From positions 629,588 through 661,587 of the forward strand of contig NZ_AP028907.1 in the NCBI RefSeq assembly GCF_036323395.1: a stretch of 32,000 bases of DNA. Direction: 5' to 3'. The notes under the pieces were generated by a model. That model saw only the letters and a program-made list of their open reading frames with translations, did not search any database and had not been told where the DNA came from. The position numbers and the translations under genes are program-made. Source of the stretch: Pyrodictium abyssi (GTDB lineage: Archaea > Thermoproteota > Thermoprotei_A > Sulfolobales > Pyrodictiaceae). Every line of letters starts with the position of its first letter. Positions within the stretch are counted from its first letter, which is position 1. This document shows positions 9,787 to 30,982 of this stretch, one piece after another.

Positions 9787-9910
9787 GTAGCCCCGGCCCC
9801 GCTGCACGCGCCAAGGCACCGGGAGTGAGACGGCACCGGACTGTGGAGGTACAGCAGAAGGGGGCACACCGTGGACCGTCAGAGGCCAGAGATAGGGGAG
9901 GGCTCTGCGG

Positions 9911-9987: not shown

Positions 9988-10016
9988 GCCCCGAGAGGCA
10001 AGGGACAATGCCCCGG

Positions 10017-10028
10017 GGATATTTCAGC
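10017..10028 (-). promoter_or_regulatory. TATA-like box for tRNA-Ile
   Basis: The + strand ggatatttcagc reads GCTGAAATATCC on the - strand, centred about 35 nt upstream of the tRNA 5' end. Confidence 0.35.
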
Positions 10029-10177
10029 ACTACGCCCAGGACCCAGAGGTCAGCCACAGCTCCAACACCGCCCAAAGGGGGACCCGCAGGAGCCGCAGGC
10101 ATGGTGGGCCGCGGGTGGAGGAGGAGAGGCCAAAAGAGCCAGAGTAGAGGGGCGGGGGCGCGCCCTCGCCCTCCCGA

Positions 10178-11948: not shown

Positions 11949-12012
11949 GGCTCGAGGCACCTTCCCGTCTATGTTTTTGTTCTGTCAAGTGTTATGTAGA
12001 AGTTGTTTCTGG

Positions 12013-13530: not shown

Positions 13531-14688
13531 GTGCCTGGCATGCGGCTACCGCTACCGCTGCCCCGGCGTATCAAGATACGGCGCGAGCCCCGGCTAGCAG
13601 ACATCTGGATCATGCAGCGCTGGCCTATTGAGTCGCTCGACGCCTGCAAGATGGCGGACCCCCCGTTCGCCGACATAAACGGCGTGGGCGCTGTGCTGGA
13701 GAGGCTCGTGGACCAGGTCGTGGCGGGGCGGGGCGGCATATACATAATAGTCGGGGCCCCGGGCTCCGGCAAGTCCACGCTCCTCAAGACCCTGCATAAC
13801 CGGCTCCGCCGGGGCGGTATATACTCCCTCTACATGGATACCGCTGGGCGGAGCCTCGACGACTTCGTGGCTAGCCTCTGCTCTATCCTCGGCTGCCGCG
13901 AGGTCTCGCTCGACTCGCTCATGGAGAGGATACGCGAGAAAGCCGCGGAAGAGGGCACCATGGCCCTGCTCCTGGACGACATCGACCGCATATCCGGGGG
14001 CAACATGGACGATGTGGGCAAGCTGCTTACGGGCCTCACTGCTGTCCAGCGGGAGATCGGCCGCGGGCTCTTCATAGCCTTCAGCATGGCCCGTGAGAGC
14101 CTGGCAAGGCTCACCCTAGACCCCCTGATGAGGGGCCTCGTCAAGTCCTACATGGAGGTTATAGACCTTGACGAGCACCTCGTGAACTCCCCCACCGATC
14201 TCTCCAGGCTCCTCTACGCCCACTTCGAGCGGGCCCGGCCGCCCAACCCAGACCCCAAGGCCGCTGCTATACTCAACCGGTACCCGCTCCACCCTATCCG
14301 CGACCAGAACGTCATAAACATGCTCTACGAGATACTCGGCACAGATACGCCGCGCATGTACCTCGAGAAGGTGGACGAGCTGCTAAGGATAGCCATACGC
14401 GCCCGCTCACGCGTCGTGAGCATAGCACACCTAAACATACTAGCGAGGAGGCTCATCCAGGCCCGGCGCGAGGCTGTGCCCATTACCCAGATACAGGTCA
14501 TGCTGGTCCGCCGCTACGTGAACGGCCTGATAGCCGGCGGCCTCGTAGTGCTAGGCACAGTTGCCATAACCCTGGCGGCGATAAACCTAGTCCCGCCGGG
14601 CCTCAAGCTGCCCTACGTAGTGGTCGGCCTAGTGCTGATGCTCGCCGGTATACTGGTGCACATGAGGTCCATAGCTAGGCCGGGCTGA
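13531..14688 (+). CDS. Membrane-anchored P-loop NTPase (AAA_22/ORC-like ATPase domain plus two C-terminal TM helices)
   Basis: Walker A IIVGAPGSGKSTLLKTL and Walker B MALLLDDIDRI. The C-terminus has two hydrophobic helices, LIAGGLVVLGTVAITLAAINLV and PYVVVGLVLMLAGILVHM. The true start may be ATG 13612 or ATG 13651. Confidence 0.7.
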   Translation: MPGMRLPLPLPRRIKIRREPRLADIWIMQRWPIESLDACKMADPPFADINGVGAVLERLVDQVVAGRGGIYIIVGAPGSGKSTLLKTLHNRLRRGGIYSLYMDTAGRSLDDFVASLCSILGCREVSLDSLMERIREKAAEEGTMALLLDDIDRISGGNMDDVGKLLTGLTAVQREIGRGLFIAFSMARESLARLTLDPLMRGLVKSYMEVIDLDEHLVNSPTDLSRLLYAHFERARPPNPDPKAAAILNRYPLHPIRDQNVINMLYEILGTDTPRMYLEKVDELLRIAIRARSRVVSIAHLNILARRLIQARREAVPITQIQVMLVRRYVNGLIAGGLVVLGTVAITLAAINLVPPGLKLPYVVVGLVLMLAGILVHMRSIARPG

Positions 14689-14750
14689 GCAGCCGGGGCC
14701 CTATTTACGGGCCAGCCCATGCTAGATAGAACCGTGTCCGGGGGTCTGCT

Positions 14751-15332
14751 GTGAGCGAGTACCTCAACGTAGTGGTACCGGAGGAGAGGGGCGGTATACC
14801 CCCCGCCCTGGTGGCGCTGGTAGCGCTAGCAGCCATAGTGGCCGCTGGGCTCAGCGTCTCTGGGCAGCTGCCGCGCTTCGCCGTCATCCAGACGACGAGT
14901 ATGGTCCCTACACTGGTTCCGGGAGACGTGGTGATGATAACGAAGGTTGACCCGATGTCGATCGATGTCGGCGACGTGATAGCCTTCAACCTTGTAGCCT
15001 ACGAGGTGGACGAGCAGGGGCGGCCCATCGACATGAAGGGCATCAAGATAACAGTGCACCGCGTGATAGAGAGGAAGATGATCAACGGCCGGCTCTACTT
15101 CCGCACCCAGGGCGATAACAACCCCGTGCCAGACCCCTGGCTCGTACCCGCCTCGGGCGTGCTGGGCAAGGCGGAGAAGGTTGCTAGCCTAGGCACCTTT
15201 GGCCTGGTACTGACCAACCCCATAGGCAGGGTGTTCGTGATAATGATAATGCTGTCGTCACTAGTCCTGCTGGGCAGCACTATGTGGAGCTATAGTAAGG
15301 GTATACGCGAGGATCTTGAGAACTACCTCTAG
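14751..15332 (+). CDS. Type I signal peptidase, archaeal/ER (Sec11/SipW-like, Ser-His) type
   Basis: Catalytic-Ser box IQTTSMVPTLVPGDVVMI, His box TVHRVIER and FRTQGDNNPVPDP box. N- and C-terminal TM helices are present. GTG start. Confidence 0.85.
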   Translation: MSEYLNVVVPEERGGIPPALVALVALAAIVAAGLSVSGQLPRFAVIQTTSMVPTLVPGDVVMITKVDPMSIDVGDVIAFNLVAYEVDEQGRPIDMKGIKITVHRVIERKMINGRLYFRTQGDNNPVPDPWLVPASGVLGKAEKVASLGTFGLVLTNPIGRVFVIMIMLSSLVLLGSTMWSYSKGIREDLENYL

Positions 15333-17429: not shown

Positions 17430-20400
17430 TCAGCCAGCCCCGGCGCGGGGGCCCGCGTAGTCGTCGCCGGCGGCCGGGGGGGCGGCTGTGGTGGCTGTGG
17501 CGTTCGCGGGGGTCACGTTGCCCGGTGCCGTGACGTTGGCTGGGGCTAGCTGGGCGCCCGGCCCCGCGGCTAGTACGCCGCTAGCACGGGCCAGTGTGAA
17601 GGACTCTCGGGCGCCGTCGGGCACGGCGCGCAGTACTGCCTCGTAGCTGGCCGTCGCGTTGCCCCTCAGCTGTATCTTCACCCTCATGGAGGCTATGTCG
17701 CCGGGCCGTAGCGCGTCAACCCTCATGACCGCCATGCTGGTGGTGTAGCTGCCCGGCTCGGCGTCGAGCACCTCTACCCCGCTGGGGAACTTTACGCTGA
17801 CAACCACGTTCCTGAGGTCTATCGAGTCCAGGTTCGCGGCGCTGACCTCTACTATGGCGCGGTCCCGGTACCTCTCCACCTCCTTGACCTCGAGGGCCAC
17901 GTGGGGCACCTTCACCCTCACCGGGACCGTGGCCAGCGTGTTGCCGTCGAGCCTGAGCACTATGTAGACCGTTGTCTCGCTCCCCAGCGGCGCGCCGGGG
18001 GAGACGTGTAGCGTAGCCCACCTGGTGGTGAACTCTCCGGGCTCAAGGTCCGCCCGCGTCGCCGGCAGGAAGAGCCTGGCTATCGAGTCGTTGCCGTTGA
18101 CCGGGACTATCTCCGCGCCCTCTATCCTCATACCAGAGGCCACGTCTATCCTCACGTCCACCTCGCTCCCGGGCGGCGCCGCGACGTAGCCCGGCGTCAC
18201 AGTGACCTCCACTGTGCGGCGGAGGAGCTCTAGCACTGGTATCCTGGCTACACGGTACTCCTTGATCAGGTACTGGCCGGTCTCGTCGTAGACCAGGAGC
18301 CTTGCGTCAAGCGTGTCCAGGGGCTCCAGCTTGACGGTGTCGAGGTTTACGCTTATGTCGAGCGTGCGGTGGCTCCGAGCCGGGAGCGCCACCGTCTCGG
18401 CGTAGTCGTATATCGTGCACGCCTTCACGTCGACGCAGTCGCCCTGCCCCTTGACGAGCACAAGCCGCGCTAGGAACACGGCGTCGCGGTCCTCTGGGTT
18501 GTAGAAGGACAAGCTTATGGTAAGCCCTCTCCTCGCTATGTCTACCTCCACGTCCTCTAGCCGGGGCTCCACCATGACGGAGCGTAGCTCCACGCCACTG
18601 GTGCTTGTTGCTATAACTTTGCCGTTCGGGTCGAGCACGTGTATGCTCATAGTGTAGACGCCGGGGTAGGCGGTCGGCGGCACCGGTATGTTGACCACGA
18701 AGCTAGCGCTGCCGCCCAGGGGCACCAGCTCCTCCCCGGACTCGGCCTCGCCCAGACCCTCTATCGAGACCCTGACCCTGAGCCGGGCGTCAGTGTTACC
18801 CGTGTTAGCCACCTTAACCTCTACGCGGAAGCTCTTACCCACCACCGGGAGGTCTAGCACACGCACCTCCTCCACGGTGGCAGAGACCACTGGCTCCACT
18901 GTCAGCAGGTTGTGGAGGCTCCAGGAGGCGTAGGGCATCCCCGCTATGTAGAGGACTGCGCGGGCGTCGTAGCTCCCTGCCGCGGCGTCGCCCGGGACCT
19001 GTATGGGGACCTGGACCAGGTTAATGCCGGGGAAGAGTGGCTCCTCAACGCTGTAGCTCCGGCCGAGCAGCTGTACCTCCAGCCGGCTCTGGACTGAGCC
19101 CTCGCCGTCCAGCCGGAGCTTCACCGAGACCAGGGCCTGGCCGCCGGGCTTCACGCTCCCCGGCGACGCGCTGTAGTCCTCCAGGGATATGCTGTACGAG
19201 ACTACCTCTAGCGCGGCCTCGGCGCGGGAGGCCTCGTAGAGGTCGTCGCCCCTGAACTCCACGGCGAGGCTGTGCCTGCCCACGCCGAGCCACGAGGTGT
19301 CGAACTCAACCACTGCCACGCCGTCTCGGCCGGTGCGGGCGCTGCCCACGAGCTTCCCGTCTACGTAGAAGCTCAGGGTGCGGCCCACGAGCGGGCCCCC
19401 GGAGACCCCGTCAACCAGCCTGGCCTCGACGTGGGCGAGGCTGCCGCGCGACACCACGAAGCTCTGAGCCTCTATCTTGCTCGGCCTCTTCAGCACCTCG
19501 ACTGTCTTGCTCTTGACGCCGGTTAGCCCCGTGTCGTCCACGACTGTGAGCGTGACGTTGTAGACACCGGGCTTCTCGAACACGTGGGTAACTATCGCGC
19601 CCTCGGCCACCGTGCCGTCGCCGAACTCCCAGCGGTACCCAGTGATGTTGCCGTCGGGGTCGTAGGAGAGGAGCCCGTAGAACGTGACGTTGACGCCCCA
19701 GTAGGGCTGCCGCGGCGAGAACCAGAACCCAGCGACCGGGGGCCTGCCCTCGACGCACCAGACCGGGCGCGAATCCAGCCAAGGCTCGTAGTACTGCCTG
19801 GGGTTAGGCCGCCCCTCAAGCCACGGCATCACTATAGGGCTGCCCTTGCCCTCCGGGTTGCCCGTAGCCCGGGGGCCCGAGGGGTCACCCCACCAGTTGT
19901 GCCCCGCGTAGACGTAGCCCTCCTCAACCTTCAGCCCGTACTCGGCGCCCTCCAGGCAGCTGTAGCTCACCACCGCGGTAGAGTCCACAACACTCTTCAC
20001 GTAGACCGCCTGGGGGCCCGAGACCCGGGAGTAGAGCACCTCTAGCCTCGCCCTGCCACCCACGCCGCCCTTCTCGCCGTCAATAATCAGGCTCTCCAGC
20101 TGGCACCTATAGATCCTCATCACGGTGGACTGGCCGTAGAGGCCCCAGTCCTCGCGCACCCAGTTATCCGCAATGCTCTCGCCCCGGACCAGAACCCTCC
20201 CCATAACGGTGTTGCTCGCAACAAGACTCGACTGGTCCAGGCCGCGGCCCGAGGAGGTGCCGTTGTAGAGCCCATAGCCGTGGATAGTGAGGCCCTCCAG
20301 CGTGGAGTCTGTGATGCTCATCCACGAGGATAGCAGCCCCTCAGGCCCCTCTACCACTACGCTGCCCAGCCTCACACGCTCCAGCACCAGGCTACTACGG

Positions 20401-21212
20401 AACAGCGCTGCGCCCTCCCCCGCGTAGCTCCGGTCTACCACCACGGAGAGCCCGGAGAACACGGAGTCGCTGATGCTTATCCGGGACTCGTAGACACCAT
20501 ACATGACCGCCGGCACTAGCTTGTAGCTCGTGACGGTGACAGTCGTGTTGCCGGTAGTGATGTTGTAGCGGATGGGCACCTTCACCTGCAGCCCGGTGGC
20601 GTAGGAGTGCACCACGAACTCCCCCGTGGCGTTGACGCGGCTCAAAGTTATCTCGGACTGGTACACCGCGCTAGTCTCGTTGCCCAGGCCCAGCGACTCC
20701 ACCCTAAAGTCGCCCACAATGGTCACGTTGTCCAGCGCCACCGTGGAGTTGTAGACGCTCCGGTAGGCCGCCTTGAAGGACAGCCCGCCACGTATAACAG
20801 AGTCCGTAAACGTCACGTTGGACTCCGTGAGCCCTGTAAACTCCAGGCCATCCTCGACAACAACGTTCTTGAACACCAGGACCGAGCCCGTCACAACAAG
20901 CGTGCCGCGCCCCACCAGTGTTACCGGGCTCCCCGGCTTACCCTCGGCAAGGATCACGCCACGGTCAACCGTGACCGTGACGCCGGGCGCGAATATCAGG
21001 ACAACACCGTCCTCTATCCGGACCTCGGCCTTAATCCGGATATCCCTCGTGATTATGTACGGGCTCCCCTCACGAGTCAACACAGTATTGACTATGATAT
21101 CGCGGTCGATAGGCGTAGGGCTCGCCTCAGCCCCCGCCGCGCCCCACACCCAGCCCGCCAGAGACACAAGGTACAGTACAAGGAGTATGGACACCAGTAG
21201 CCGCCTATACAA
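17430..21212 (-). CDS. Giant secreted surface protein: signal peptide, right-handed beta-helix region, PKD domain, multiple Ig/CARDB-like domains (1260 aa as encoded)
   Basis: Signal-like MYRRLLVSILLVLYLVSLAGWVWGAAGA. Repetitive beta-helix-type segments span aa 35-445 and end in HNWWGDPSGP. The PKD motif YRWEFGDGT...HVFEKPGVYNVTLTVVDDTG spans about 19494-19742. CARDB-like FRVEVKVANTGNTDA is present, with many N-x-S/T sequons and a C-terminal NVT/NAT/Thr-Pro tract. Confidence 0.85.
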   Translation of the reverse strand: MYRRLLVSILLVLYLVSLAGWVWGAAGAEASPTPIDRDIIVNTVLTREGSPYIITRDIRIKAEVRIEDGVVLIFAPGVTVTVDRGVILAEGKPGSPVTLVGRGTLVVTGSVLVFKNVVVEDGLEFTGLTESNVTFTDSVIRGGLSFKAAYRSVYNSTVALDNVTIVGDFRVESLGLGNETSAVYQSEITLSRVNATGEFVVHSYATGLQVKVPIRYNITTGNTTVTVTSYKLVPAVMYGVYESRISISDSVFSGLSVVVDRSYAGEGAALFRSSLVLERVRLGSVVVEGPEGLLSSWMSITDSTLEGLTIHGYGLYNGTSSGRGLDQSSLVASNTVMGRVLVRGESIADNWVREDWGLYGQSTVMRIYRCQLESLIIDGEKGGVGGRARLEVLYSRVSGPQAVYVKSVVDSTAVVSYSCLEGAEYGLKVEEGYVYAGHNWWGDPSGPRATGNPEGKGSPIVMPWLEGRPNPRQYYEPWLDSRPVWCVEGRPPVAGFWFSPRQPYWGVNVTFYGLLSYDPDGNITGYRWEFGDGTVAEGAIVTHVFEKPGVYNVTLTVVDDTGLTGVKSKTVEVLKRPSKIEAQSFVVSRGSLAHVEARLVDGVSGGPLVGRTLSFYVDGKLVGSARTGRDGVAVVEFDTSWLGVGRHSLAVEFRGDDLYEASRAEAALEVVSYSISLEDYSASPGSVKPGGQALVSVKLRLDGEGSVQSRLEVQLLGRSYSVEEPLFPGINLVQVPIQVPGDAAAGSYDARAVLYIAGMPYASWSLHNLLTVEPVVSATVEEVRVLDLPVVGKSFRVEVKVANTGNTDARLRVRVSIEGLGEAESGEELVPLGGSASFVVNIPVPPTAYPGVYTMSIHVLDPNGKVIATSTSGVELRSVMVEPRLEDVEVDIARRGLTISLSFYNPEDRDAVFLARLVLVKGQGDCVDVKACTIYDYAETVALPARSHRTLDISVNLDTVKLEPLDTLDARLLVYDETGQYLIKEYRVARIPVLELLRRTVEVTVTPGYVAAPPGSEVDVRIDVASGMRIEGAEIVPVNGNDSIARLFLPATRADLEPGEFTTRWATLHVSPGAPLGSETTVYIVLRLDGNTLATVPVRVKVPHVALEVKEVERYRDRAIVEVSAANLDSIDLRNVVVSVKFPSGVEVLDAEPGSYTTSMAVMRVDALRPGDIASMRVKIQLRGNATASYEAVLRAVPDGARESFTLARASGVLAAGPGAQLAPANVTAPGNVTPANATATTAAPPAAGDDYAGPRAGAG

Positions 21213-21478: not shown

Positions 21479-22171
21479 TTAGCCTACCTGCAGTACCTGG
21501 AAGTTGAGTATTACTGGTAGGCTGTCGAATAGCATGCCCTCCCTAGCCTCATAGAAGGCCTTGACCGTTAGTACAGCGAATGTAGCGTCATTGCCCATGC
21601 CATTGAATACGCCACTCTTAGTTATCTGCCAGCTGCCAGTTGCGTTGCCTATTTCTATCTTATCGCTGGGTGAACCTGGTACCCAGAATGTTACGTTTGC
21701 TGGTATGCTTGCAGCTGTCTCGTTCAGCTTAGCAATATTGAACAAGTCTTCAGCGTCAAGTATTATTACGGCTTTAGGCTTCTGTAGGGAGAGGACAGCT
21801 TTGATCTCTGAGTAGTTGCCTATAGCGGACTCGTTTGTGTTGAAGGCGCTTGTTATCTGTAGCTGTAGGTACTTGAAGTATGGCCTTAGCTGTGCGGCAT
21901 TGGCTATTTTTACTAGGAGCTTTACGTCGTTTACGTCGGCGCGTACTGGCACTAGCACAAAGCCCATGTCCTCGCTGCCCTGGGCGCCGGCGGCGGGGGC
22001 TATGTTGGTGTTGAGCTTGCTCACTACGTCTATTGGCTCGCTTACCGCCTCTGCTGTACCGGTGGCGTAGAAGCTGTTGAGCGGGCTCTGGGTGGTGGCG
22101 AAGCCTGCTAGCAGGGCGAGGGCGGCAGCCGAGGCGATGATACCCGCTATAGCTAGGGTTGTGTACCTCAC
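21479..22171 (-). CDS. Secreted filament-subunit candidate, Can-like family (230 aa)
   Basis: GTG start. The first 40 aa are identical to the 174-aa paralogue. Motifs APAAGAQG, IANAAQLRPYFKYLQL and a C-terminal FYEAREGMLFDSLPVILNFQVLQVG-stop are present. Five sequons: NES, NYS, NET, NVT, NAT. Confidence 0.85.
   Translation of the reverse strand: MRYTTLAIAGIIASAAALALLAGFATTQSPLNSFYATGTAEAVSEPIDVVSKLNTNIAPAAGAQGSEDMGFVLVPVRADVNDVKLLVKIANAAQLRPYFKYLQLQITSAFNTNESAIGNYSEIKAVLSLQKPKAVIILDAEDLFNIAKLNETAASIPANVTFWVPGSPSDKIEIGNATGSWQITKSGVFNGMGNDATFAVLTVKAFYEAREGMLFDSLPVILNFQVLQVG
22053..22171. repeat. Copy 2 of the 119-bp near-identical 5' gene segment
   Basis: See 11830-11948. Confidence 0.95.
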
Positions 22172-22225
22172 TTTTTACGCACCCCTACTCTGGCTCTGGT
22201 TCGTGTCTACTCCCGTTTCATGCAA

Positions 22226-22235
22226 CTTATATATT
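22226..22235. promoter_or_regulatory. TATA-like element in the divergent region between the 230-aa gene and the PP2C-like gene
   Basis: cttatatatt lies 55-64 nt from GTG 22171 (- strand) and about 55-65 nt from the candidate starts at 22287-22299 (+ strand). Confidence 0.35.
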
Positions 22236-22289
22236 GTTTCTCTGCGCTGTCAAGCTGGTATATGTGTAACGTGTGTTATTATTGGCTTG

Positions 22290-23162
22290 GTGCGGTGGGT
22301 GTTTAGGCTCCGGGCGGGGGGAGCGCTACGAGGGGCGCTGGCTGTGGCCTGGCGTGCCTGGGTAGCTGTATCCAATGCTGTCCACTTCGAGGATGATGCT
22401 GGGCTCTGGGTTGATGGGGACCGCGGCGCTGTGGCGGTGGCGGATGGGGTCTCGATGTCCCGGGGCGGGGGCGCCTCGTTCCTGGCCGCGTGGGGGTTCG
22501 CTGCGCTCTGCCGGGCCCTGCTGCCGGACTGGAGGGGGAGCCTGGCGGGGGCCGCGCAGCGGTGCCTAGAGCTGCTGGACCGCGCCGCCCGGGAGGCGCT
22601 GGCGCTCGACGCCGCGGCTGTGGCGGAGGCGAAGCAGCGGTACTACCGCGGCTGCGGCTCTCCCTGCACCCGGCCCCCGGGCCTCGCCGAGCTAGAGGCC
22701 CTGAGGCCCCTGGAGCCCGGGGGGAGGGGCGCCGAGGCGAAGCCGAGCTCGACGCTCCTCGCAGCGCTCCTGGGCCCCGGGGGCCGGGCCGCGCTGGTGC
22801 TAGCCGGCGACGGCGCGGTGGTAGCGACCACGGGGGGCCGGGAGGACACCTGGCTCCTCTGGGGCGCGCTGCCCCAGTTCTACGAGGGGAGCCGGGTCGC
22901 CCGCTTCCTGGAGGTCGGCGGCGGGCTCCGGGGCGAGCCGGTGGTGCTGGAGACCATCCTGCCCCGGGGCACCCTGCTAGCCCTGGCGACGGACGGTGTG
23001 GACCCCGCGGCGCTCGCCGAGGAGCTGGTAGAGCTGGCCAGGCGGGGCATCCCCGAGCCCGCCGCCGAGAACCCGGCCGGCTACCTGCTACGCCGCATAG
23101 AGGAGCGCACCGGGGGCCTAGAGGACGACGCCACCCTCGCGCTGGTGGAGTGGACGGGCTAG
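22290..23162 (+). CDS. PP2C-like (PP2C_2/SpoIIE-type) protein phosphatase
   Basis: AVAVADGVSMSRGGGASFLAAW is the first metal-binding D-G motif region. LLALATDGVDP and the near-C-terminal LEDDATLALVEW are also present. The upstream part of the 361-aa ORF (22077-22289) is antisense to the Can-like gene and was discarded. Candidate starts are TTG 22287, GTG 22290 and GTG 22299. Confidence 0.55.
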   Translation: MRWVFRLRAGGALRGALAVAWRAWVAVSNAVHFEDDAGLWVDGDRGAVAVADGVSMSRGGGASFLAAWGFAALCRALLPDWRGSLAGAAQRCLELLDRAAREALALDAAAVAEAKQRYYRGCGSPCTRPPGLAELEALRPLEPGGRGAEAKPSSTLLAALLGPGGRAALVLAGDGAVVATTGGREDTWLLWGALPQFYEGSRVARFLEVGGGLRGEPVVLETILPRGTLLALATDGVDPAALAEELVELARRGIPEPAAENPAGYLLRRIEERTGGLEDDATLALVEWTG

Positions 23163-23223
23163 CCCCCCGGGGCCCAGCCCTAATTAGGCGCATACGGCCC
23201 GGTATAGCCTGGGGGCGGAGCTC

Positions 23224-24018
23224 GTGGCTGGCGCGGTGGACCGGAGGGCTCTCGGGGAGGCGCTGCTGGAGCTGCTTGAGGAGGACCGGGAGTTCCGCCA
23301 CGCTGTGATGGGGCTGCTGGGCTACCGCGAGGTACTGGAGAGGATAACCAGGCTTGAGGAGCGGTTCGCGAGACTAGAGGAGAGGTTCGCCAAGCTGGAG
23401 GAGGAGTTCCTGGAGCTGCGGAGGGCCCAGCAACGCCTCGAAGAGAGGCAGCAGCGCCTAGAGGAGAGGTTCCAGAAGCTAGAAGAAAGATTCGCAGAGC
23501 TAGAGGAGCACTTTGCCCGGCTGGAGGAGCGCTTCGCCAAGCTGGAGGAGGAGTTCCAGAAGCTAGAGGAGAGGCAGCAGCGCCTAGAGGAGAGGATGGC
23601 TAGGCTAGAGGAGGAGATGAGGGAGACGCGGAGGGTGCTGAACACGATCGCGCACAGGTTCGGGCTGCTCACGGAGACGGGGTTCCGCGAGGCCATGCGG
23701 TACGTGGTCGAGGAGGCTCTCGGCGCCGCCCGGGTCGAGAGGCTCTCCCTCCGGGACGAGGAGGGCCTAGTCTACGGCTACCCCGCCACCGTGGACATAG
23801 ACCTGGTGGTGAGGGACGGGGAGCACATAATCGTCGAGGTCAAGTCCAGGGTGGACCCGGGGGACGTGGCGGTCCTCGCCCGCAAGGCCAGGCTCTACGA
23901 GAGGGAGACCGGCACCAGGCCCCGGGCAGTGATACTGGGCGGCTACGTGGCCCCCTCGGCCTACGAGGCCGCAGCCCGGCTGGGCGTCACGGTCAGGCCC
24001 TACCTCAGGGAGGACTAA
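23224..24018 (+). CDS. Coiled-coil protein with C-terminal PD-(D/E)XK nuclease-fold domain
   Basis: GTG start. An approximately 90-aa heptad array (LEERFAKLEEEF...) is followed by ...ATVDIDLVVRDGEHIIVEVKSRV, the canonical D...E-x-K core. Confidence 0.65.
   Translation: MAGAVDRRALGEALLELLEEDREFRHAVMGLLGYREVLERITRLEERFARLEERFAKLEEEFLELRRAQQRLEERQQRLEERFQKLEERFAELEEHFARLEERFAKLEEEFQKLEERQQRLEERMARLEEEMRETRRVLNTIAHRFGLLTETGFREAMRYVVEEALGAARVERLSLRDEEGLVYGYPATVDIDLVVRDGEHIIVEVKSRVDPGDVAVLARKARLYERETGTRPRAVILGGYVAPSAYEAAARLGVTVRPYLRED
23344..23619 (+). repeat. In-frame 21-nt (heptad) tandem periodicity with an internal duplication of about 147 nt
   Basis: RLEERFAKLEEEF(L/Q)...QQRLEER occurs twice, at aa 50-78 and aa 99-124 of the 264-aa protein. 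Confidence 0.85.
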
Positions 24019-24075
24019 GCCCCCAGCGCCAGGATGCTATAGCTACGCTTATCCCTCTCCCCATCTCCTCTAGCG

Positions 24076-24747
24076 TTGTGGTGGAGAGGGGCCCCTACTG
24101 TGTCCCTGATAAGCCGGCTGCTGGAGGAGATGGACCGGGAGCCCGGGGAGGCCCGGAGGCTCGCAAGGAGGCTAGCCTCCGACATAGCCTCGGAGGAGAC
24201 GCTGCGCTCACTACTCCTAGAGGCCGTGGTCCGGGAGACGGCTACCAGGGAGGACCTGGAGCGGCTCGGAGACAGGCTAGAGGGGAGGATAGAAGCCCTA
24301 CACGGGGAGATGAAGACACTAGCCGCCAGGGACGAGCTGAGGGCGGAGGTACAGAGGCTGGAGGAGAGGATAGCAGGGGTAGAACAGAAGATAGAAGCCC
24401 TACGCGGAGAACTGGCGGAGACCAGGGAGAGGATGGCGACCAAGGAGGAGCTGGAGAAGCTGCGCGGGGAGATGAAGACGCTGGCATCGGAGGAGAGAGT
24501 GGCAAGGATAGAGGAGAGGATAGCAGGGGTAGAGCAGAGGATGGCGACACGGGAGGAGCTGTACGCCGTGAGGGAGGAGCTACGCGGGGAGATCCACCGT
24601 ACACGGGAGGAGCTACGGGCAGAGATAAGCCGGCTCCACAGCCGCCTCGACACCCTAGTCAAGTGGACCATAGGCCTACTCGTAACAGTCTGGGCAGCAA
24701 CACTAGCCGCAATGCTCACAGCACTAAGGCTACTAGCAGGAGGCTAG
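24076..24747 (+). CDS. Tail-anchored coiled-coil protein (DUF1640/CCDC90-like architecture), paralogue 1
   Basis: Repeated ATxEEL/ATREDL-initiated helical segments with an internal duplication: 24361-24390 versus 24511-24540 are 28/30 identical. C-terminal TM LVKWTIGLLVTVWAATLAAMLTALRLL. Start is TTG 24076 or GTG 24100. Confidence 0.7.
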   Translation: MWWRGAPTVSLISRLLEEMDREPGEARRLARRLASDIASEETLRSLLLEAVVRETATREDLERLGDRLEGRIEALHGEMKTLAARDELRAEVQRLEERIAGVEQKIEALRGELAETRERMATKEELEKLRGEMKTLASEERVARIEERIAGVEQRMATREELYAVREELRGEIHRTREELRAEISRLHSRLDTLVKWTIGLLVTVWAATLAAMLTALRLLAGG

Positions 24748-24861
24748 CCCCAGGAACACCCCCGTGCTTCTCTAAGGCGCTGACTCCGACGCCCCCAGCC
24801 CGAGCAGAACAAGGCCGTAGAAGAACCAAGAGGGGCCCAGAACCCCCCAGGAGGGGGAGGG

Positions 24862-24875
24862 GAAGGAAAAAGGCG
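24862..24875 (-). terminator. Oligo-T terminator candidate for the 389-aa gene
   Basis: A5 at 24867-24871 on the + strand. The - strand reads CCGCCTTTTTCCTTCCCCTCCCCC, 42 nt past the stop at 24913. Confidence 0.4.
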
Positions 24876-24912
24876 GTGTCTCTCGGGGGCCTCGGGCTGC
24901 CGCCCCCGCCGG

Positions 24913-26082
24913 CTAGCTGGTCTCCAGCACCTCTGCGTTGATGACTAGTGGTAGGCTGTCGAAGAGCACGCCCTCCAAGCCCTCGTAGAACACGGTGACA
25001 CCGTAGACAGCGGCGCGGCCGCCGTCAACCTTCCAGCTGTCCTCGTCAACCACCAGAGTATCCTCGGGCTGCCACCAGCCACTAGCCCGGTCAAAGCCTA
25101 AGGTGGCGCGAATATTGCCAAGCACAAGCACCGGATAGAGGCTACTCATGTACTCCTGAGCCTCAACTCTATCATAGACACCGTTTGTGTCGGTATCATA
25201 CCATGTCACATTCCACATCATGGTGAAGAGCACATTGCCTTCTTTATCAATGAACTCCAGTATCAATGTATAGTTGGTAGCTGCTATATCAGGCCATGTC
25301 CCTCCATCACTAACCTCGGCTATATATAAGCTTTCGTTCTCATAACTATCCCAGAAGAAGACACTAGGGTTATTATCGTAGAATATCCTTATGCTATAGT
25401 TTCCGTTGGGGTGTACAGGCTTCACTGAGAACCATAAACCCCGCTCAACAATATCATCAAGGCTTAAGTCTTCTACTAGTACTCGCCGACCGGGATTAGT
25501 TTCTGTGTTATTTATTAACGTCAGGTTAACATGGGCAACTTCTCCTAACAGCCTCCATGCAAATGCCGTAACGTTGACTCCTTCAGAAGCGTAGTTTGCT
25601 GAAACGTCGTAGATTTTCCCCGCCAATGTTGCGCTGTCTAGCGCATATCTGCCAAGGTTGTCAGGAGCACTTTCACTATCATTATCACTAGTCTCGATTC
25701 TCGGCGGGAGTTCCTCAAAGGGCGTTGGCCCTTTCCACTCCTCGTGTGCTTCCCGTATCTGTATGATGAGGTATCTGTAGTACTGTGCTAGCTGCTTGAT
25801 GTTCTCTAGCTCTAGGCGTATCTTTGTGGTGTTTACGTCGTTGTACCGTATGAGCTTGAGCCAGCTTGTCTCCTCTAGCTTGCCCTGTGCCCCCGCAGCA
25901 GGGCTTATGACGAGGTCCTTGAGCACCTGTAGGTCCACCGGCTCGCTAGTCGCCGCGCCGCCGCCGAGCCCGAGGAAGCCTGCTAGAGGGCTCCCCGTGG
26001 TGGCGAAGCCGGTTAGGAGGGCGAGGGCGGCAGCCGAGGCCACAACAGCCAGGAGAGCGAGAGTCTCGCGGCGGAGGCTCAC
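24913..26082 (-). CDS. Secreted Can-like family protein with large central insert (389 aa)
   Basis: GTG start. Leader MSLRRETLALLAVVASAAALALLTGFATTGSPLAGF, then SPAAGAQG, ELENIKQLAQYYRYLIIQIREA, and a C-terminal VFYEGLEGVLFDSLPLVINAEVLETS-stop. The central insert of about 230 aa is AT-rich and rich in N-x-S/T sequons. Confidence 0.85.
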   Translation of the reverse strand: MSLRRETLALLAVVASAAALALLTGFATTGSPLAGFLGLGGGAATSEPVDLQVLKDLVISPAAGAQGKLEETSWLKLIRYNDVNTTKIRLELENIKQLAQYYRYLIIQIREAHEEWKGPTPFEELPPRIETSDNDSESAPDNLGRYALDSATLAGKIYDVSANYASEGVNVTAFAWRLLGEVAHVNLTLINNTETNPGRRVLVEDLSLDDIVERGLWFSVKPVHPNGNYSIRIFYDNNPSVFFWDSYENESLYIAEVSDGGTWPDIAATNYTLILEFIDKEGNVLFTMMWNVTWYDTDTNGVYDRVEAQEYMSSLYPVLVLGNIRATLGFDRASGWWQPEDTLVVDEDSWKVDGGRAAVYGVTVFYEGLEGVLFDSLPLVINAEVLETS

Positions 26083-26427
26083 CTCTGGTGCACCCCGTCT
26101 TCTGGGGCTGTGTTGCCGAGTTCCTTGAGGCTACTGCTGTGTGGGATTATGTGGCGGGGCTGTATTAATAGTGTATTGTTCGTGGGCGGGGGTGTATGGC
26201 CCTGGCCCGGGTTGTACCCGGTTTGGGCCGCTGGGGTTGATACCCTCGCTCGTGTCCTAGTGTCTCTCCGGGGGCCCGGGGGCTTGGCTGGTGAGCTAGA
26301 GGTTGCTGGGGCAGAGGAGGCCAGGGAGCTGCGCCGGAGGATGGCCGACTGGAGGTTCATAGAGGAGCAGCCCCGCGGATATGGGAGGCGCTCAAATACT
26401 ACGTGGAGCCCGGGTCCCCGTCGTGGT

Positions 26428-27177
26428 CTAGGGGGGCGCTGGATGCGCCGGCTGCTGGAGCACCATCTTGAGCAGCAGGCCTATGATGCCCAGGAGTATG
26501 GGCAGGTTGAACACCACGAAGAGCTTCGCGAGGAGGTCTAGCTTCGCCTCAACCCTCGCCAGCCTCTCCTCTAGCCGGGAGACCTCCCGGCGTAGCTCCT
26601 CCTTCGTGGCCAGCCTGGCTATCTCCGCCCGTAGCTCCTCCCGTGTCGCCATCCTCTCCAGCTTCTCTTCTAGCCTCGCTATCTCTCTCTGTAGCTCCTC
26701 CCGGGCGGCCATCCTCTGCTCTATCCCCTCTAGCCTCTCCTCTAGCCGGCGTATCTCCCCGCGTAGCTCATCCCTCACAGCGTAGAGCTCCTCCCTGGTT
26801 GCTAGGGCCCGTGTCTTTTCCTCGAGCTGGCTCCGGGTGGCGAGCCTCTTCATCCCCTCCTCAAGCCGGGCCACCTCCGCCCGTAGCTCTTCGCGGGTAG
26901 CGAGCTTCCCTATTTCCCCGCGTAGCTTTTCTAGCTCCTCCTTGGTGGCTAGGGCCTTCACCTCGCCCCGGAGCGTCTCCACGCGCTCCTCTACAGCGTG
27001 TATCCTCTCCCCGAGCCTCACCAGCTCCTCTCTGACCCCGGCCACGTCGCGGCGCAGAAGCTCCACGTCGCCCCGGGTCGCCGACTCCCGGGCAACCGCG
27101 AGCAGTAGCGCCCGCCGGAGCCGCCGGTCCCCGAGAAGCTTCTCAACCACAGCGTCCACGTCTACAGGCTGGGACAA
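26428..27177 (-). CDS. Tail-anchored coiled-coil protein, paralogue 2 (249 aa)
   Basis: Shares LATREELYAVRDELRGEI and repeated ATKEEL/ATREEL segments with 24076-24747. C-terminal TM LFVVFNLPILLGIIGLLLKMVL. Confidence 0.75.
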   Translation of the reverse strand: MSQPVDVDAVVEKLLGDRRLRRALLLAVARESATRGDVELLRRDVAGVREELVRLGERIHAVEERVETLRGEVKALATKEELEKLRGEIGKLATREELRAEVARLEEGMKRLATRSQLEEKTRALATREELYAVRDELRGEIRRLEERLEGIEQRMAAREELQREIARLEEKLERMATREELRAEIARLATKEELRREVSRLEERLARVEAKLDLLAKLFVVFNLPILLGIIGLLLKMVLQQPAHPAPP

Positions 27178-27212
27178 GAGAAGGCCCTAGAAGAGGGTAC
27201 GCGGCGGACGGC

Positions 27213-27220
27213 GCTATAAA
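27213..27220 (-). promoter_or_regulatory. TATA box for the 249-aa coiled-coil gene
   Basis: The - strand reads CTTTATAG, centred about 40 nt upstream of ATG 27177. Confidence 0.45.
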
Positions 27221-27223
27221 GGG

Positions 27224-28960
27224 TTACGAGCCTATGGGCTGAAGGGTGGACCCCGTGCTGCCCTGCAGCTCCTCTACGAGTATGCTGCGTAGCTGTGCTC
27301 GTAGCTTCTTCTTGTCTATCTTGCCGACGCTTGTCCTCGGGAGCTCCCTGACTAGTACCACCTTGTCGGGTAGCCACCACTTGGGTATGGCTCCTTTCTC
27401 CACGTAGTTCTCCATGAGGTAGCGCCTTATCTCCTCGGTTGTGGGCTCATCCTTGCAGCCGGGCTTGGGGACTATTGCTGCTACTGGGCGTTCCTGCCAC
27501 TTGGGGTGATAGGCTGCCACGACTGCTACCTCTGCTACGCAGGGGTGCCTGCTTATCGCGTCCTCTAGCCTGGTGGAGCTTATCCACTCGCCGCCGCTCT
27601 TGATTATGTCCTTCTCGCGGTCTACTATCTCTATGCTGCCGTCGGGGTGCCAGACGGCTATGTCGCCGGTGTGGAACCAGCCGCCGCGCCACGCTTTCTC
27701 GGTCTTCTCGGGGTCCATGTAGTACTCGGGCGTCACCCAGGGCGCCCGGACGACCACCTCGCCCATTGTCTTGCCGTCGCGGGGCACGGGGTTCATGTCC
27801 TCGTCCACCACCCGTACCTCCACGAGGGGAACTGGCCAGCCGGTGCGGAGCGCGTAGTCGAGCCACCGCTCCCCGGCGTCGCTTAGCCCCGCGTGCGGCA
27901 GGGCTAGGGTGAGCACCGGGGCTGTCTCGGTCATGCCGTAGCCCACGATCACCCGTATCCCGCGGCGTGTCGCCTGCTCTGCGAGGCCGCGGGGGAGCGC
28001 TGAGCCGCCGTTGATGAAGGTGAGCCGGCTGAGGTCGTAGCGCTCGGAGTCGGGGTGGCTGAGCAGCATGTAGAGAATGGTAGGCACACCGGCTGTTAGC
28101 GTGACCTGCTCCTCGTCTATGAGGCGTAGGAGCACGCCGGGGTCGAGCTTGTTGGGGAAGACCTGGCGCATGCCTACGAGGGTCGCTAGGTAGGGGAGCC
28201 CCCAGCTGTACACGTGGAACATGGGGACTATGTGGAGTATCGTGTCCCCGCTGCTTATCCGGAACCAAGGCGACGCCGTGGCGAGGTGGAGCGCGGCACT
28301 CATCACGTGGAGCACTATCATCCGGTGGCTGTGGTAGGCCCCCTTCGGGAGCCCCGTGGTCCCGCTAGTGTAGCCCATCGCGGCGGGCTGGTTCTCGTCC
28401 AGCTCGGGCCACTCGTAGCCGCCCCGGTGCTCCCTCACGAGGTCCTCGTAGTTGTAGACGGGGCGGCCTGCTAGCCGGTCTGGGTGCGACTCCGCGTCCA
28501 CGACCACTACGGCCCGGAGCTGGTCCAGATGCGGGGCCACGGCCTCGATGAGGGGCAGGAAGTCCCGGTGGACTATGGCTACACGGTCCCCCGCCTGCCC
28601 CATTATGTAGGCTATCTCGCTGGGCGCGAGCCGTATGTTGACCGGGTGCAGCACAGCCCCCATCATGGGGACCGCTAGGTAGGCCTCGTAGTGCCAGTGC
28701 GTGTTCCAGTCGAGCGTGGCCACGGGGTCGAGGCGGCCCACTCCAAGCGCCTCTAGGGCGGCTGCGAGGGCCTTCATCCTCTCCGCGGCCCGGGAGAACG
28801 TGTACCTCTCCACGCCGCGGCTGGTGCGGTAGACTATCTCCACCCCGGGGAAGAGGCTCAGCGCGCGCTCGTAGAATGCTCGGAGGGTGAGGCTGTGGCC
28901 GGGCCTCCAGGGTACGCGTTCGGGGAGCCCCGGGAAGGCGGACCACCAGAATCCCACCAC
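27224..28960 (-). CDS. AMP-forming acyl-CoA synthetase (medium/long-chain fatty-acid--CoA ligase family)
   Basis: AMP-binding motif MGYTSGTTGLPKGAYHSH, plus VGYGMTET, WFHTGDIAVW...DREKDIIKSGGEWISS, and a C-terminal ...RTSVGKIDKKKLR. Confidence 0.9.
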   Translation of the reverse strand: MVGFWWSAFPGLPERVPWRPGHSLTLRAFYERALSLFPGVEIVYRTSRGVERYTFSRAAERMKALAAALEALGVGRLDPVATLDWNTHWHYEAYLAVPMMGAVLHPVNIRLAPSEIAYIMGQAGDRVAIVHRDFLPLIEAVAPHLDQLRAVVVVDAESHPDRLAGRPVYNYEDLVREHRGGYEWPELDENQPAAMGYTSGTTGLPKGAYHSHRMIVLHVMSAALHLATASPWFRISSGDTILHIVPMFHVYSWGLPYLATLVGMRQVFPNKLDPGVLLRLIDEEQVTLTAGVPTILYMLLSHPDSERYDLSRLTFINGGSALPRGLAEQATRRGIRVIVGYGMTETAPVLTLALPHAGLSDAGERWLDYALRTGWPVPLVEVRVVDEDMNPVPRDGKTMGEVVVRAPWVTPEYYMDPEKTEKAWRGGWFHTGDIAVWHPDGSIEIVDREKDIIKSGGEWISSTRLEDAISRHPCVAEVAVVAAYHPKWQERPVAAIVPKPGCKDEPTTEEIRRYLMENYVEKGAIPKWWLPDKVVLVRELPRTSVGKIDKKKLRAQLRSILVEELQGSTGSTLQPIGS

Positions 28961-29060
28961 GCTACGGCGATACTATTTAACGCTTCCATACCACTGTATC
29001 GAGCACGACAGAAAGCTCTAGAGGACGGTGGAACAGTGTAGCCGGGGCATAGCCCCGGGG

Positions 29061-30104
29061 CTAGAGTATGGAGGAGAGGGTGTAGCTGGGCATGTGCCGC
29101 TTCTCGCCCGGGTCTACGACGAATATGTGGTAGAAGGCCTCCACTATGTCGTCGCCTAGGCCGCGCCAGAGCTTGCTGAGCTCGAGGTACTCCTGCTGGT
29201 CCAGGTAGCCCTGGTCAGCCATGCTCAGCGGGGGCCAGCCGCCGGGGTAGCCGCGCTCCGCCTCGGCCTCGACGATCTCGCGCCAGTGGCCACCGGTGAG
29301 CATGGGGAGGCCGTGGAACGGGCTAAGCCCCGTGTAGACGATCGCTACGAGCTGTAGCCCGTACCAGGTCGGGGCCCAGGCTATCCAGGAGAGGACGGGC
29401 CGGGGCAGCTGGGAGACTATGAGGGGTATGGGGAGCTCGCCGGGGTCCGGGGGCTCGAGCTCTACGCCTATCTCGCTGAGGGCCTCGACGGGGAGGAGGT
29501 GTGCGTCGCGGGCGGGTAGGACTGTGAGCGGGTAGTCCTCCGAGCCTATTATCCCCGCGGTCTCGTAGTCGTAGAGGAAGACCCCGGTGACCCCGTCCAC
29601 GGTCCCGTAGGCCGCGTTAGCCGTGGTCGTGTCTACGTGGGCTATGTCGGCGGCGTCTAGGCATGCGAGGCCTCTTAGCACCTCGCGGGCGAACTCCCTC
29701 CTCTCCTCGTCGCTGTGCTTCTCCAGGTACTCGCCGAGCAGCTCCGGGTCGTTGATCAGCTCCGAGACAGTGGTGAAGCCCTCTAGCTCGCGGAAGACTA
29801 GCACCGCGCGGTCCTCTAGCGCGCCCACCGCTACGGGTAGGCCGCGGAGCCGGAGGCTGTCCGGGAGCACGCGGCCGCACTTGCGGCGGAGCCTGGTGAG
29901 CCGGCGGAGCATTTCGGCTATACGCTCTATGGGCTTGGCCAGACCCGTGTACTTGGGCGTGTAGACCTTGAGGATGTAGCTCTTGCCGCCGCGGAGCCGG
30001 GCCCGGTATATGTCGGCCTCGCCGCCGCTGTCGAGGAGCTCCCACTCGCCGCTACTAGTGTCCACGACCCAGCCGTCGTAGAAGACCAGGGTGACCTTGC
30101 TCAT
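29061..30104 (-). CDS. Atypical protein kinase-like protein (RIO/Bud32-like N-terminal domain plus unknown C-terminal domain)
   Basis: G-loop/Lys region DSGGEADIYRARLRGGKSYILKVY, catalytic-loop-like IAHVDTTTANAAY (H-x-D-x4-N) and metal-binding-like FLYDYETAG. The ATG 30104 start is preferred because GGAGGGAGGAG lies about 10 nt upstream and the longer ORF overlaps the vWA gene. Confidence 0.55.
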   Translation of the reverse strand: MSKVTLVFYDGWVVDTSSGEWELLDSGGEADIYRARLRGGKSYILKVYTPKYTGLAKPIERIAEMLRRLTRLRRKCGRVLPDSLRLRGLPVAVGALEDRAVLVFRELEGFTTVSELINDPELLGEYLEKHSDEERREFAREVLRGLACLDAADIAHVDTTTANAAYGTVDGVTGVFLYDYETAGIIGSEDYPLTVLPARDAHLLPVEALSEIGVELEPPDPGELPIPLIVSQLPRPVLSWIAWAPTWYGLQLVAIVYTGLSPFHGLPMLTGGHWREIVEAEAERGYPGGWPPLSMADQGYLDQQEYLELSKLWRGLGDDIVEAFYHIFVVDPGEKRHMPSYTLSSIL

Positions 30105-30130
30105 GGGGCGCCGCTCCTCCCTCCGCGGGC

Positions 30131-30922
30131 CTAGACCGTGGCTGTCTCGCTCAGCCTCTCGACGAACCTGCGCACAGCCTCCTCCCACTCGCGGGATATC
30201 CTGTCGTCCGCCGGCGCGTCGATGAACATCTTCTCGTGGTACGGCGGGTCCACGAGGTCTATGAGGCCGCGCTCCTCTAGGACCCGGCGCTGGGCCTCCC
30301 GGAGGAAGCTCGCTATGTCGCGCAGCGTCTCCCGGTCCGCGTCCTGGCCCAGGGCTATGGTTGCTAGGCCTATACGGTTCCTCTCGTGAAGCCTCCTCAT
30401 CCTCTCCGCCAGGTCCATGGTTATCTTCTCCGCAGCCGCCACCACGTCGTCGACGCTCCTCTTGGTCTCCTTGCCGTCGGTGAAGAGGAATATGGTGCCG
30501 TACTTCTCCGGCGGCAGCGTCAGCTGGTTCACGTAGCGCTCCACCACGGAGGCGGCCGCCTCAAGCGCGTCGGCCATAGCGGTCATGCCGTAGGGCCGGT
30601 TCCTCTCGAGGCTCTGGCGGAACACCTCCAGGGCAACGTTCCGGGGGGACACGGGGAAGTAGACGCGGCCATCCTGCTCGACTATCTCCACGTCGTCGCT
30701 GTACCAGACGAAGCCAACCTGGAACGCGGGAGCCATCCTGCTGCGGCCGAGCCTCCGGAGAAGCATCTCCACGAGGTCTGCGAGGTGGAACCACTTCCCC
30801 CGGTAGTCGTAGGTCTTGGGCTCCATCATGCTAAGGGAGCGGTCTAGGATGAAGACGACCAGGACTGTGTAGCTGAGCGGGCGCCTACGCAGCAGCTGCA
30901 GCGCGAAAGACCGTGACACCAT
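30131..30922 (-). CDS. von Willebrand factor type A (vWA) domain protein with intact MIDAS
   Basis: VVFILDRSLSMM (D-x-S-x-S), GMTAMADAL (MIDAS Thr) and IFLFTDGKET (MIDAS Asp). Confidence 0.75.
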   Translation of the reverse strand: MVSRSFALQLLRRRPLSYTVLVVFILDRSLSMMEPKTYDYRGKWFHLADLVEMLLRRLGRSRMAPAFQVGFVWYSDDVEIVEQDGRVYFPVSPRNVALEVFRQSLERNRPYGMTAMADALEAAASVVERYVNQLTLPPEKYGTIFLFTDGKETKRSVDDVVAAAEKITMDLAERMRRLHERNRIGLATIALGQDADRETLRDIASFLREAQRRVLEERGLIDLVDPPYHEKMFIDAPADDRISREWEEAVRRFVERLSETATV

Positions 30923-30982
30923 GACCAGCCTCCACGAGTTCTACGGGTGGGTGCTCCCGGGGCCGCGCGGGCAGCGCGAGGG

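Follow-up and report, generated by a model that had tools for sequence, protein, structure and literature searches.

The window analysed here, a stretch of 32,000 nucleotides of the Pyrodictium abyssi genome (contig NZ_AP028907.1, positions 629,588 to 661,587), carries a gene for a protein of the metal-dependent protein phosphatase (PPM)/PP2C fold, which lies head-to-head with Can230, a gene for a paralog of the cannula subunits CanA and CanX. Across the family Pyrodictiaceae the conserved partner of this phosphatase gene is an operon encoding a vWA protein and a protein kinase, and not the Can gene. The phosphatase is best read, with moderate confidence, as belonging to a signalling module of vWA protein, kinase and PP2C, from which its gene would have been displaced by the growth of the can gene cluster in Pyrodictium. 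The coordinates of the gene, of its motifs and of its neighbours are given in Table 1.

The reading frame of the phosphatase is intact up to the stop codon at 23160–23162, and its product contains VADGVSMSRGGGAS, LATDGV and DDATLALVEW. The initial annotation had described a protein of about 290 amino acids which starts about 120 nt from a divergent Can-like gene. The open reading frame (ORF) and the divergence were correct, but the start, the length and the gap had to be revised. The N-termini of all 18 homologs compared read MAWRAW or MPW and match the GTG at 22344, and none of these homologs keeps the extension 22290–22343. In metagenomic contigs which encode a 92%-identical protein (L019/L020), the region corresponding to this extension shows a 2-nt indel and an in-frame TGA. 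Both the GTG at 22290 and a long ORF beginning with the TTG at 22077 were ruled out by the homolog starts together with this indel and stop codon. With GTG 22344 as the start codon, the protein has 272 amino acids and the gap to Can230 is 172 nt. The overlapping ORFs 22303–23301 (minus strand) and 22490–23308 (plus strand) were rejected as GC-rich shadow artefacts, as homology backs the PP2C frame only.

The assignment as a PP2C-like phosphatase was borne out by profile, fold and motifs. The Pfam family PP2C_2 (PF13672) matched residues 16–220 of the 272 at 30 bits, compared with a gathering score of 24, and with an E-value of 4.6e-7 to 4.8e-7. A precomputed match to this family is present in most orthologs, and public databases already label the relatives as PP2C-domain proteins. 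The family SpoIIE (PF07228) stayed at 19.3 bits, below its cut-off of 25, with an alignment to the C-terminal 70 residues alone, so that of the proposed PP2C_2/SpoIIE type the first half stands and the second does not. No family was found in NCBIfam, and a search of the PDB with the single sequence found nothing. Profile searches of the PDB gave only marginal matches of the C-terminal part to SpoIIE, none below E 0.005, and therefore a comparison of folds was needed. An AlphaFold2 (AF2) model based on an alignment with 19 orthologs reached a predicted local distance difference test score (pLDDT) of 87.6 and a predicted template modelling score (pTM) of 0.89. Among the best 50 Foldseek matches of this model in the PDB all have the PP2C fold (PstP, tPphA, RsbX, SpoIIE, PPM1K, plant PP2Cs and TAB1), with probability 1.0, E-values of 1e-9 to 1e-7, identities of 11–18% and target-normalised TM-scores of up to 0.73. 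The gene 22344–23162 thus encodes a genuine PPM/PP2C-fold protein.

The invariance of the motifs was scored in the 19 orthologs and in a wider alignment (A3), to which relatives at about 20% identity were added. The metal-binding aspartates are intact: D17, D34, D156, D217 and D261 are invariant in all 19 orthologs. The residue-level HMMER alignment to SpoIIE spans motifs II, VIII and XI, with motif II aligned to SDGMGN of SpoIIE and, by hhalign, to VADGAGS of Escherichia coli PphC. We take the invariant G155-D156-G157 to be the equivalent of the GDS motif of PPM phosphatases (motif V), which binds the third metal in PstP and tPphA. With its β-sandwich fold, found by Foldseek, the protein resembles PstP of Mycobacterium tuberculosis, tPphA of T. 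elongatus as well as RsbX and SpoIIE of Bacillus subtilis. It shares the acidic motifs I, II, V, VIII and XI with bacterial PPM phosphatases and with that of Thermoplasma volcanium, the one archaeal PPM phosphatase which has been characterised biochemically (PMC5007285). The phosphatase is probably catalytically active, and the gene product can be assumed to be a cytoplasmic Mn2+/Mg2+-dependent PPM (PP2C_2-type) Ser/Thr phosphatase.

In contrast to the bacterial PPM structures, to which its identity is only 11–18%, the family has cysteines and a segment of its own. Four cysteines are conserved, three of them (C74, C104 and C108) invariant and Cys56 in at least 90% of the orthologs. The segment WxxWGALPQ (residues 170-178) is invariant and specific to this phosphatase family, and it overlaps residues 176–184, the only part of the model with a pLDDT below 50. 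The cysteines might form a metal or disulfide site, and WxxWGALPQ might form a flap for substrate recognition.

That the ORF is a decaying gene or codes for a catalytically dead pseudophosphatase, stranded after leaving the operon, is very improbable. The gene has lost its adjacency to the operon, and its guanine-plus-cytosine (GC) content of 0.759 is unusually high compared with its surroundings (0.527 for Can230 and 0.636 for the whole window), which agrees with the earlier remark on a very GC-rich gene beside an AT-richer subunit gene. However, the ortholog of Pyrodictium occultum is similarly GC-rich (0.741 vs. 0.657 for its locus), and high GC is therefore a trait of the lineage. Moreover, the ORF is intact, none of the metal-binding motifs varies among the orthologs, and the structure was predicted with confidence. 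The ratio of nonsynonymous to synonymous substitution rates (dN/dS) against the 92%-identical ortholog is 0.13, and the gene is under purifying selection.

The gene order around the phosphatase gene was compared with ortholog loci from P. occultum, Hyperthermus butylicus, four metagenomic contigs and ten contigs of metagenome-assembled genomes (MAGs). The loci of P. occultum and H. butylicus were obtained by exact-protein look-ups and the MAG contigs by a genome-contig scan, and homologs of the window proteins were placed in them by tblastn. Apart from P. abyssi and P. occultum, this gave 13 distinct loci, all from Pyrodictiaceae, with sequenced flanks of 3.5–20.8 kb. In 11 of the 13, the phosphatase gene and a five-gene operon are immediate head-to-head neighbours. 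The remaining two have an insert of about 3.6 kb between phosphatase gene and operon, with cytochrome oxidase genes in the insert of locus L006. On the side away from the operon, the relatives have a 196-amino-acid gene after the phosphatase gene, then an ODP gene, a DUF2204 gene and a PGI gene; neither the 196-amino-acid gene nor the ODP gene is present in the window. No Can homolog was found in the phosphatase flanks of any of the 13 loci, and synteny with Can-like genes thus fails outside the genus.

The phosphatase family is tiny, with 20 clusters at E<=1e-3 and seven at E<=1e-30 among 1.84 billion representatives. All named sources of its homologs belong to Pyrodictiaceae, to which, judged from these matches, the family is restricted.

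In the relatives, the operon encodes a Roadblock-like protein of about 255 amino acids, a vWA protein of 263, a protein kinase of 347, a zinc-ribbon protein of about 260 and an uncharacterised protein of about 265 amino acids. The window contains three genes of this module (29061–31789), whose products are 40–73% identical to their operon orthologs. Kinase and vWA genes are located 5.9–7.8 kb downstream of the phosphatase gene, in line with the 6–8 kb given by the initial annotation.

The AF2 model of the kinase (pLDDT 93.2) shows the eukaryotic protein kinase (ePK) fold. Foldseek returned more than 1388 matches at E<=1e-3, of which the best 50 listed are chains with the protein-kinase fold. 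The invariant residues K46, H156-x-D158-x4-N163 and D179 are present, and an alignment with Bud32 covers the G-loop, the catalytic lysine and the catalytic loop. The Pfam search with the 347-amino-acid protein gave no family at E<=0.01, and a Cys-rich tail is absent. The vWA protein is 67–73% identical to the vWA protein of the operon beside the PP2C gene in the relatives. A sequence search of the PDB with it gave chance-level matches only, and no kinship with ArnA or ArnB emerged. The first gene of the module encodes a protein of 268 amino acids, whose match to the Pfam family Robl_LC7 (18 bits) stays below the cut-off of 23; in 11 loci, its ortholog is the gene from which the PP2C gene directly diverges.

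The fourth operon product of the relatives combines a Roadblock-like N-terminus with four CPxCG zinc knuckles and a C-terminal hydrophobic helix. Two Roadblock/LC7-like proteins are therefore encoded in the operon (L003, 5421-9809; also L004, L005, L007, L009, L010 and L012), one of them fused to the four CPxCG knuckles and a C-terminal membrane helix. A description of this Roadblock–zinc-knuckle–membrane-helix architecture was not found in the literature searched.

Table 1. Features of the phosphatase gene, its motifs, the intergenic region and the neighbouring genes in the window.
Feature	Position	Strand	Basis
PP2C_2-family PPM phosphatase gene, 272 amino acids, corrected GTG start	22344–23162	+	Profile match, homolog starts, AF2 model, dN/dS
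Stretch earlier counted as coding, most likely 5′ leader	22290–22343	+	Indel and TGA in L020; extension kept in no homolog
PPM motif I, E16-D17-D18	22389–22397	+	Invariant in 19 orthologs; D17 kept in A3
PPM motif II, A-D34-G35-V-S, metal-bridging Asp-Gly	22440–22454	+	Invariant in 19 orthologs and A3
G155-D156-G157	22806–22814	+	Invariant, even among the distant relatives in A3
PPM motif VIII, T-D217-G218-V-D	22989–23003	+	Invariant in 19 orthologs and A3; aligned to MSDGI of SpoIIE
PPM motif XI, E-D261-D262-A-T	23121–23135	+	Invariant in 19 orthologs and A3; aligned to IEDDMT of SpoIIE
Can230, CanA/CanX-family cannula-subunit paralog, divergent neighbour	21479–22171	-	PDB matches; canX DNA identity; absent there in P. 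occultum
TATA-like AATATATAAG with purine-rich, BRE-like AGAGAAAC directly 5′; probable Can230 promoter	22226–22235	-	Pattern matches near can genes
ggtatatgtgtaac, candidate TATA box for the phosphatase gene	22258–22271	+	A/T-rich; one mismatch in the 92% relative (L019/L020)
Can389, large Can paralog between phosphatase gene and kinase module	24913–26082	-	Can-like N- and C-termini
Protein kinase, 347 amino acids, ATG at 30104; predicted cognate kinase	29061–30104	-	AF2, Foldseek, invariant residues, synteny
vWA protein, 263 amino acids, intact metal ion-dependent adhesion site (MIDAS; DRSLS…T…D)	30131–30922	-	Pfam VWA, E 2.1e-9; motif read from the sequence
First module gene, 268 amino acids, weak Roadblock/LC7-like C-terminal region	30983–31789	-	Robl_LC7, 18 bits; operon orthology

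Triads of this kind are known from bacteria. The TerY-P triad consists of a vWA protein, a PP2C phosphatase and a kinase fused to a zinc ribbon (PMC11090510). In E. coli, the Mn2+-dependent phosphatase PphC (10.1101/303594) is part of the cluster yegL–pphC–yegI and is the archetype of PF13672, which it matches with 176 bits. The P. abyssi phosphatase, with its 30 bits, falls into the same family; like PphC, it starts directly with M-x-W-R and carries VADG…S…GG. As in the YegL–PphC–YegI system, a small MIDAS vWA protein and a kinase for which Pfam has no match at E<=0.01 are encoded alongside. BLASTP aligned the vWA protein with YegL over 61 residues only (E 6e-4). Its gene is a neighbour of the phosphatase gene in 11 of the 13 relatives, compared with a distance of 7 kb in the window.

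The differences are also clear. The Asp of motif VIII, which is missing in PphC (10.1101/303594), is kept in the window phosphatase. In the relatives, the phosphatase gene is transcribed divergently from the operon and does not lie inside it as in the TerY-P and Yeg systems, and in the window it is detached from the operon by 5.9 kb. Furthermore, two Roadblock-like proteins and one further protein are added to the set, and the zinc ribbon is part of a separate Roadblock–zinc-ribbon–transmembrane protein and not fused to the kinase as in TerY-P. The kinase gene shares an operon with the vWA gene as in TerY-P, but the C-terminal zinc-ribbon/OB-fold fusion and a match of the phosphatase or the vWA protein in the PADLOC defence models are absent. 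Strict membership in TerY-P thus fails on account of the separate zinc ribbon, the lack of PADLOC matches for phosphatase and vWA protein and the remote similarity to PphC. The phosphatase is a divergent member of a known family, set in a variant of a known triad.

Transferred to the window, this comparison suggests that the phosphatase would act as the off-switch of the module by reversing the phosphorylation carried out by the 347-amino-acid kinase. Its targets may be the kinase itself and/or the vWA and Roadblock proteins, as in TerY-P and in YegL–PphC–YegI. In the Pyrodictium lineage, the phosphatase gene would have left its ancestral slot, and Can paralogs would have invaded and rearranged the neighbourhood. 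On this view, its head-to-head arrangement with Can230 would be a young by-product peculiar to the lineage, in which each gene has its own TATA box.

Several results weigh against this signalling module. The phosphatase gene of the window lies 5.9 kb from the kinase module in convergent orientation, and that of P. occultum lies about 27.6 kb from it, so that coupling at the level of the operon is lost in the genomes under study. The zinc-ribbon gene and the fifth gene of the operon are missing from the window. The similarity to PphC is remote (hhalign E 8.5e-4, probability 24%, 68 N-terminal columns), and the hhalign comparison of the 347-amino-acid kinase with E. coli YegI was not significant. 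With the PADLOC defence models, which we believe to include TerY-P, neither the phosphatase nor the vWA protein had a match at E<=1, and the single match of the kinase was a weak one to MkoA (E 5e-4). Finally, genes of the module border on Can paralogs in both Pyrodictium genomes, which could reflect function.

The likeness to TerY-P also allows a different role, in which the vWA–kinase–PP2C set is a TerY-P-type conflict module against stress or viruses and the phosphatase gates an effector such as the DUF3782/PD-(D/E)XK protein encoded next to it. An association of TerY-P triads with restriction systems has been described, as have TerY-P-like modules which provide defence on their own (PMC11090510). 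The neighbouring gene 23224-24018 (plus strand) starts 62 nt downstream of the phosphatase gene, and its product consists of DUF3782 and a PDDEXK_10 nuclease domain with coiled-coil repeats of the LEERFAKLEE type; it matches the PADLOC candidate family C3a181 with an E-value of 1.8e-26. This role is nevertheless quite unlikely. P. occultum lacks the nuclease gene, in the 92% relative (L019) just an inverted remnant of it is left, and PADLOC gave no better support for the three module proteins than described above. In addition, the chromosomal surroundings of the module (ODP, DUF2204, PGI) are shared throughout the family, as expected for a vertically inherited core locus and not for a mobile defence island.

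The displacement in Pyrodictium can be followed by comparing the two genomes. The ancestral slot holds the phosphatase gene in all other Pyrodictiaceae loci compared, but it is filled by a WD40/β-propeller-like gene in P. occultum (L018, 6354-8210) and in a Hyperthermus sp. MAG (L023, 3358-5298). This gene codes for 618 or 646 amino acids and is located between the 196-amino-acid gene and the 263-aa/vWA/kinase operon. The phosphatase gene of P. occultum diverges directly from a gene for a 1296-amino-acid PKD-domain protein, the ortholog of 17430–21212 in the window, and is followed by a convergent Can389-like gene, Can422. The window gene 17430-21212 (minus strand) encodes a secreted protein of 1260 amino acids with PKD, Big_3_5 and DUF11 domains, which is 68% identical to its P. 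occultum ortholog.

The P. occultum kinase gene is followed after 158 nt by Can386, also Can389-like and on the same strand. Can389 of the window has two orthologs there: Can422, next to the PP2C gene, and Can386, immediately after the kinase gene. Between the window (~21479-31789) and the P. occultum loci L001 and L018 an inversion is seen, whose ends coincide with the inverted Can389-like paralogs Can386 (L018, 11202-12362, plus strand) and Can422 (L001, 10902-12170, minus strand). Recombination among can paralogs thus seems to reshape the region.

Can230 itself is a true CanA/CanX paralog, which confirms the Can-like nature of the divergent neighbour. In the PDB it matched CanX (9h8b, E 9e-64) and CanA (7uii, E 1.2e-62). 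The 5′ 314 nt of Can230 are 82% identical to canX DNA at 11637–11947, the signal peptides of both are identical, and in P. occultum no Can gene is located between the PKD gene and the PP2C gene. For these reasons, Can230 looks like a recently inserted paralog, which would go back to a recent duplication of the canX/canA type, and the Can230–phosphatase pair would accordingly be young. On the other hand, the module genes of this genus are embedded in a can cluster which is growing.

The intergenic region was searched for promoter elements. The element cttatatatt is indeed present at 22226–22235 between the two starts, as had been noted, but it resembles a can-type promoter on the minus strand and not a divergent promoter shared by both genes. 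The Can230 start follows 55–64 nt downstream of it. A search of the window for the pattern with one mismatch allowed gave three matches, compared with 0.24 expected by chance. One of them immediately precedes the Can429 ORF, on the coding strand of that ORF, and canX has ATATTATAAG at the corresponding position. The element is therefore the probable promoter of Can230. In P. occultum, two divergent genes have separate A/T-rich boxes, with the box of the phosphatase gene 38–45 nt upstream of its start. We infer that two promoters stand back to back in the window, each gene with its own TATA box, in place of a shared operator.

The divergent arrangement had led to the proposal of phosphorylation-dependent control of filament gene expression or export. 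In this form, the phosphatase, probably together with the kinase and the vWA protein, would control the expression or export of Can proteins as a retargeted Arn-like network, and the divergent promoter would serve co-regulation. The PP2C gene, the divergent Can gene and the kinase and vWA genes on which the proposal was built are all there, but a functional, co-regulated phosphatase–Can pair is not supported by the 13 loci and by P. occultum. In favour of control over cannulae, genes of the module and Can paralogs are neighbours in both Pyrodictium genomes. The window has the PP2C gene head-to-head with Can230, and Can389 between the PP2C gene and the kinase gene; P. occultum has Can422 convergent with the PP2C gene, and Can386 in tandem behind the kinase gene. 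Moreover, the translocated position next to the PKD protein and Can genes is kept in both species.

The model for such control is the Arn network of Sulfolobus acidocaldarius (ArnA, ArnB, ArnC/D and PP2A), in which vWA and zinc-ribbon or zinc-finger proteins, eukaryote-like kinases and a PP2A phosphatase control the expression of the archaellum (PMC5007285). As Arn genes are never located in the filament loci which they regulate (PMC4858521), the missing synteny with Can genes elsewhere is not fatal to the proposal. Like the Arn network, the module is a crenarchaeal set for Ser/Thr phosphorylation with vWA, zinc-ribbon, kinase and phosphatase components (PMC5007285). However, the Arn phosphatase is of the phosphoprotein phosphatase (PPP) type (PP2A), whereas that of the window is a PPM. 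ArnA has an FHA domain (PMC5007285), whereas none was detected in any module protein by Pfam and NCBIfam. The Arn target is the type IV-pilus-like archaellum, whereas the cannula is Sec-secreted and assembled by donor-strand exchange. Neither a PP2A-type phosphatase nor an FHA protein was found here, and the Arn network may be regarded as a functional analogue.

Taken with the following points, control of the cannulae by the phosphatase is rather unlikely. Can homologs are lacking in the phosphatase flanks of the 13 other Pyrodictiaceae loci, and Can230, absent at this place in P. occultum, seems to be a recent duplicate. As the two Pyrodictium genomes share ancestry, the association of Can genes with the module counts as about one evolutionary event. 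With five can paralogs in the window and rearrangements that end at Can paralogs, such adjacency is to be expected from growth of the cluster alone. The TATA-like element resembles can-type promoters on the minus strand, and a separate A/T-rich box is located nearer to the phosphatase gene. The Can proteins cannot be direct substrates, as they are secreted by Sec and self-assemble with Ca2+ outside the cell (10.1101/2024.12.30.630787). Finally, the searches of Pfam and NCBIfam found neither an FHA protein nor a transcription factor in the module. The link to cannulae is thus weakened to a possible but weak one, based on the lineage-specific adjacency.

A combination of both ideas is that an ancient vWA–kinase–PP2C module was captured by the can cluster in Pyrodictium and is now the phosphorylation switch for the production of cannulae or matrix fibres. 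The move of the phosphatase gene to the PKD/Can locus, the tandem of kinase gene and Can386 in P. occultum and the pairing of the PP2C gene with Can230 would then be functional rewiring and not accident. Taken as a whole, this joint claim is unlikely.

Further observations concern the can cluster of the window. The ORF 11424–11960 corresponds to CanX (E 1e-106), and 11 of 15 cannula paralogs have been described as grouped in two clusters (10.1101/2024.12.30.630787). The ORF 9437-10504 (minus strand) has a PaREP1 C-terminus, while its first ~148 residues match the C-terminal domain of Can389-like proteins. An ORF for a Can N-terminus of 115 amino acids is located at 10928-11275 (minus strand), and the GC content falls to 0.454 in the interval 10501-11000. 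The two ORFs may be a split or decayed Can paralog. Beside the CanX cluster, a gene for an AAA ATPase and a Peptidase_S26-like gene were found at 13531-15332 (plus strand), the latter with a match of 23.8 bits against a cut-off of 22.9. In P. occultum, the pair is kept beside a Can paralog at 71% identity (L001, 2660-4429). It may deserve attention, as can neighbourhoods were described to be without dedicated signal peptidases (10.1101/2024.12.30.630787).

For the biology of Pyrodictium, the evolutionarily young adjacency to Can230 means that the adjacency alone cannot be read as a regulatory link. The phosphatase, the kinase and the vWA protein form a module found throughout Pyrodictiaceae, which resembles the bacterial TerY-P and YegL–PphC–YegI triads. 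They offer a testable target: a small hyperthermophilic PP2C whose catalytic residues are intact, together with its predicted cognate kinase and its vWA partner.

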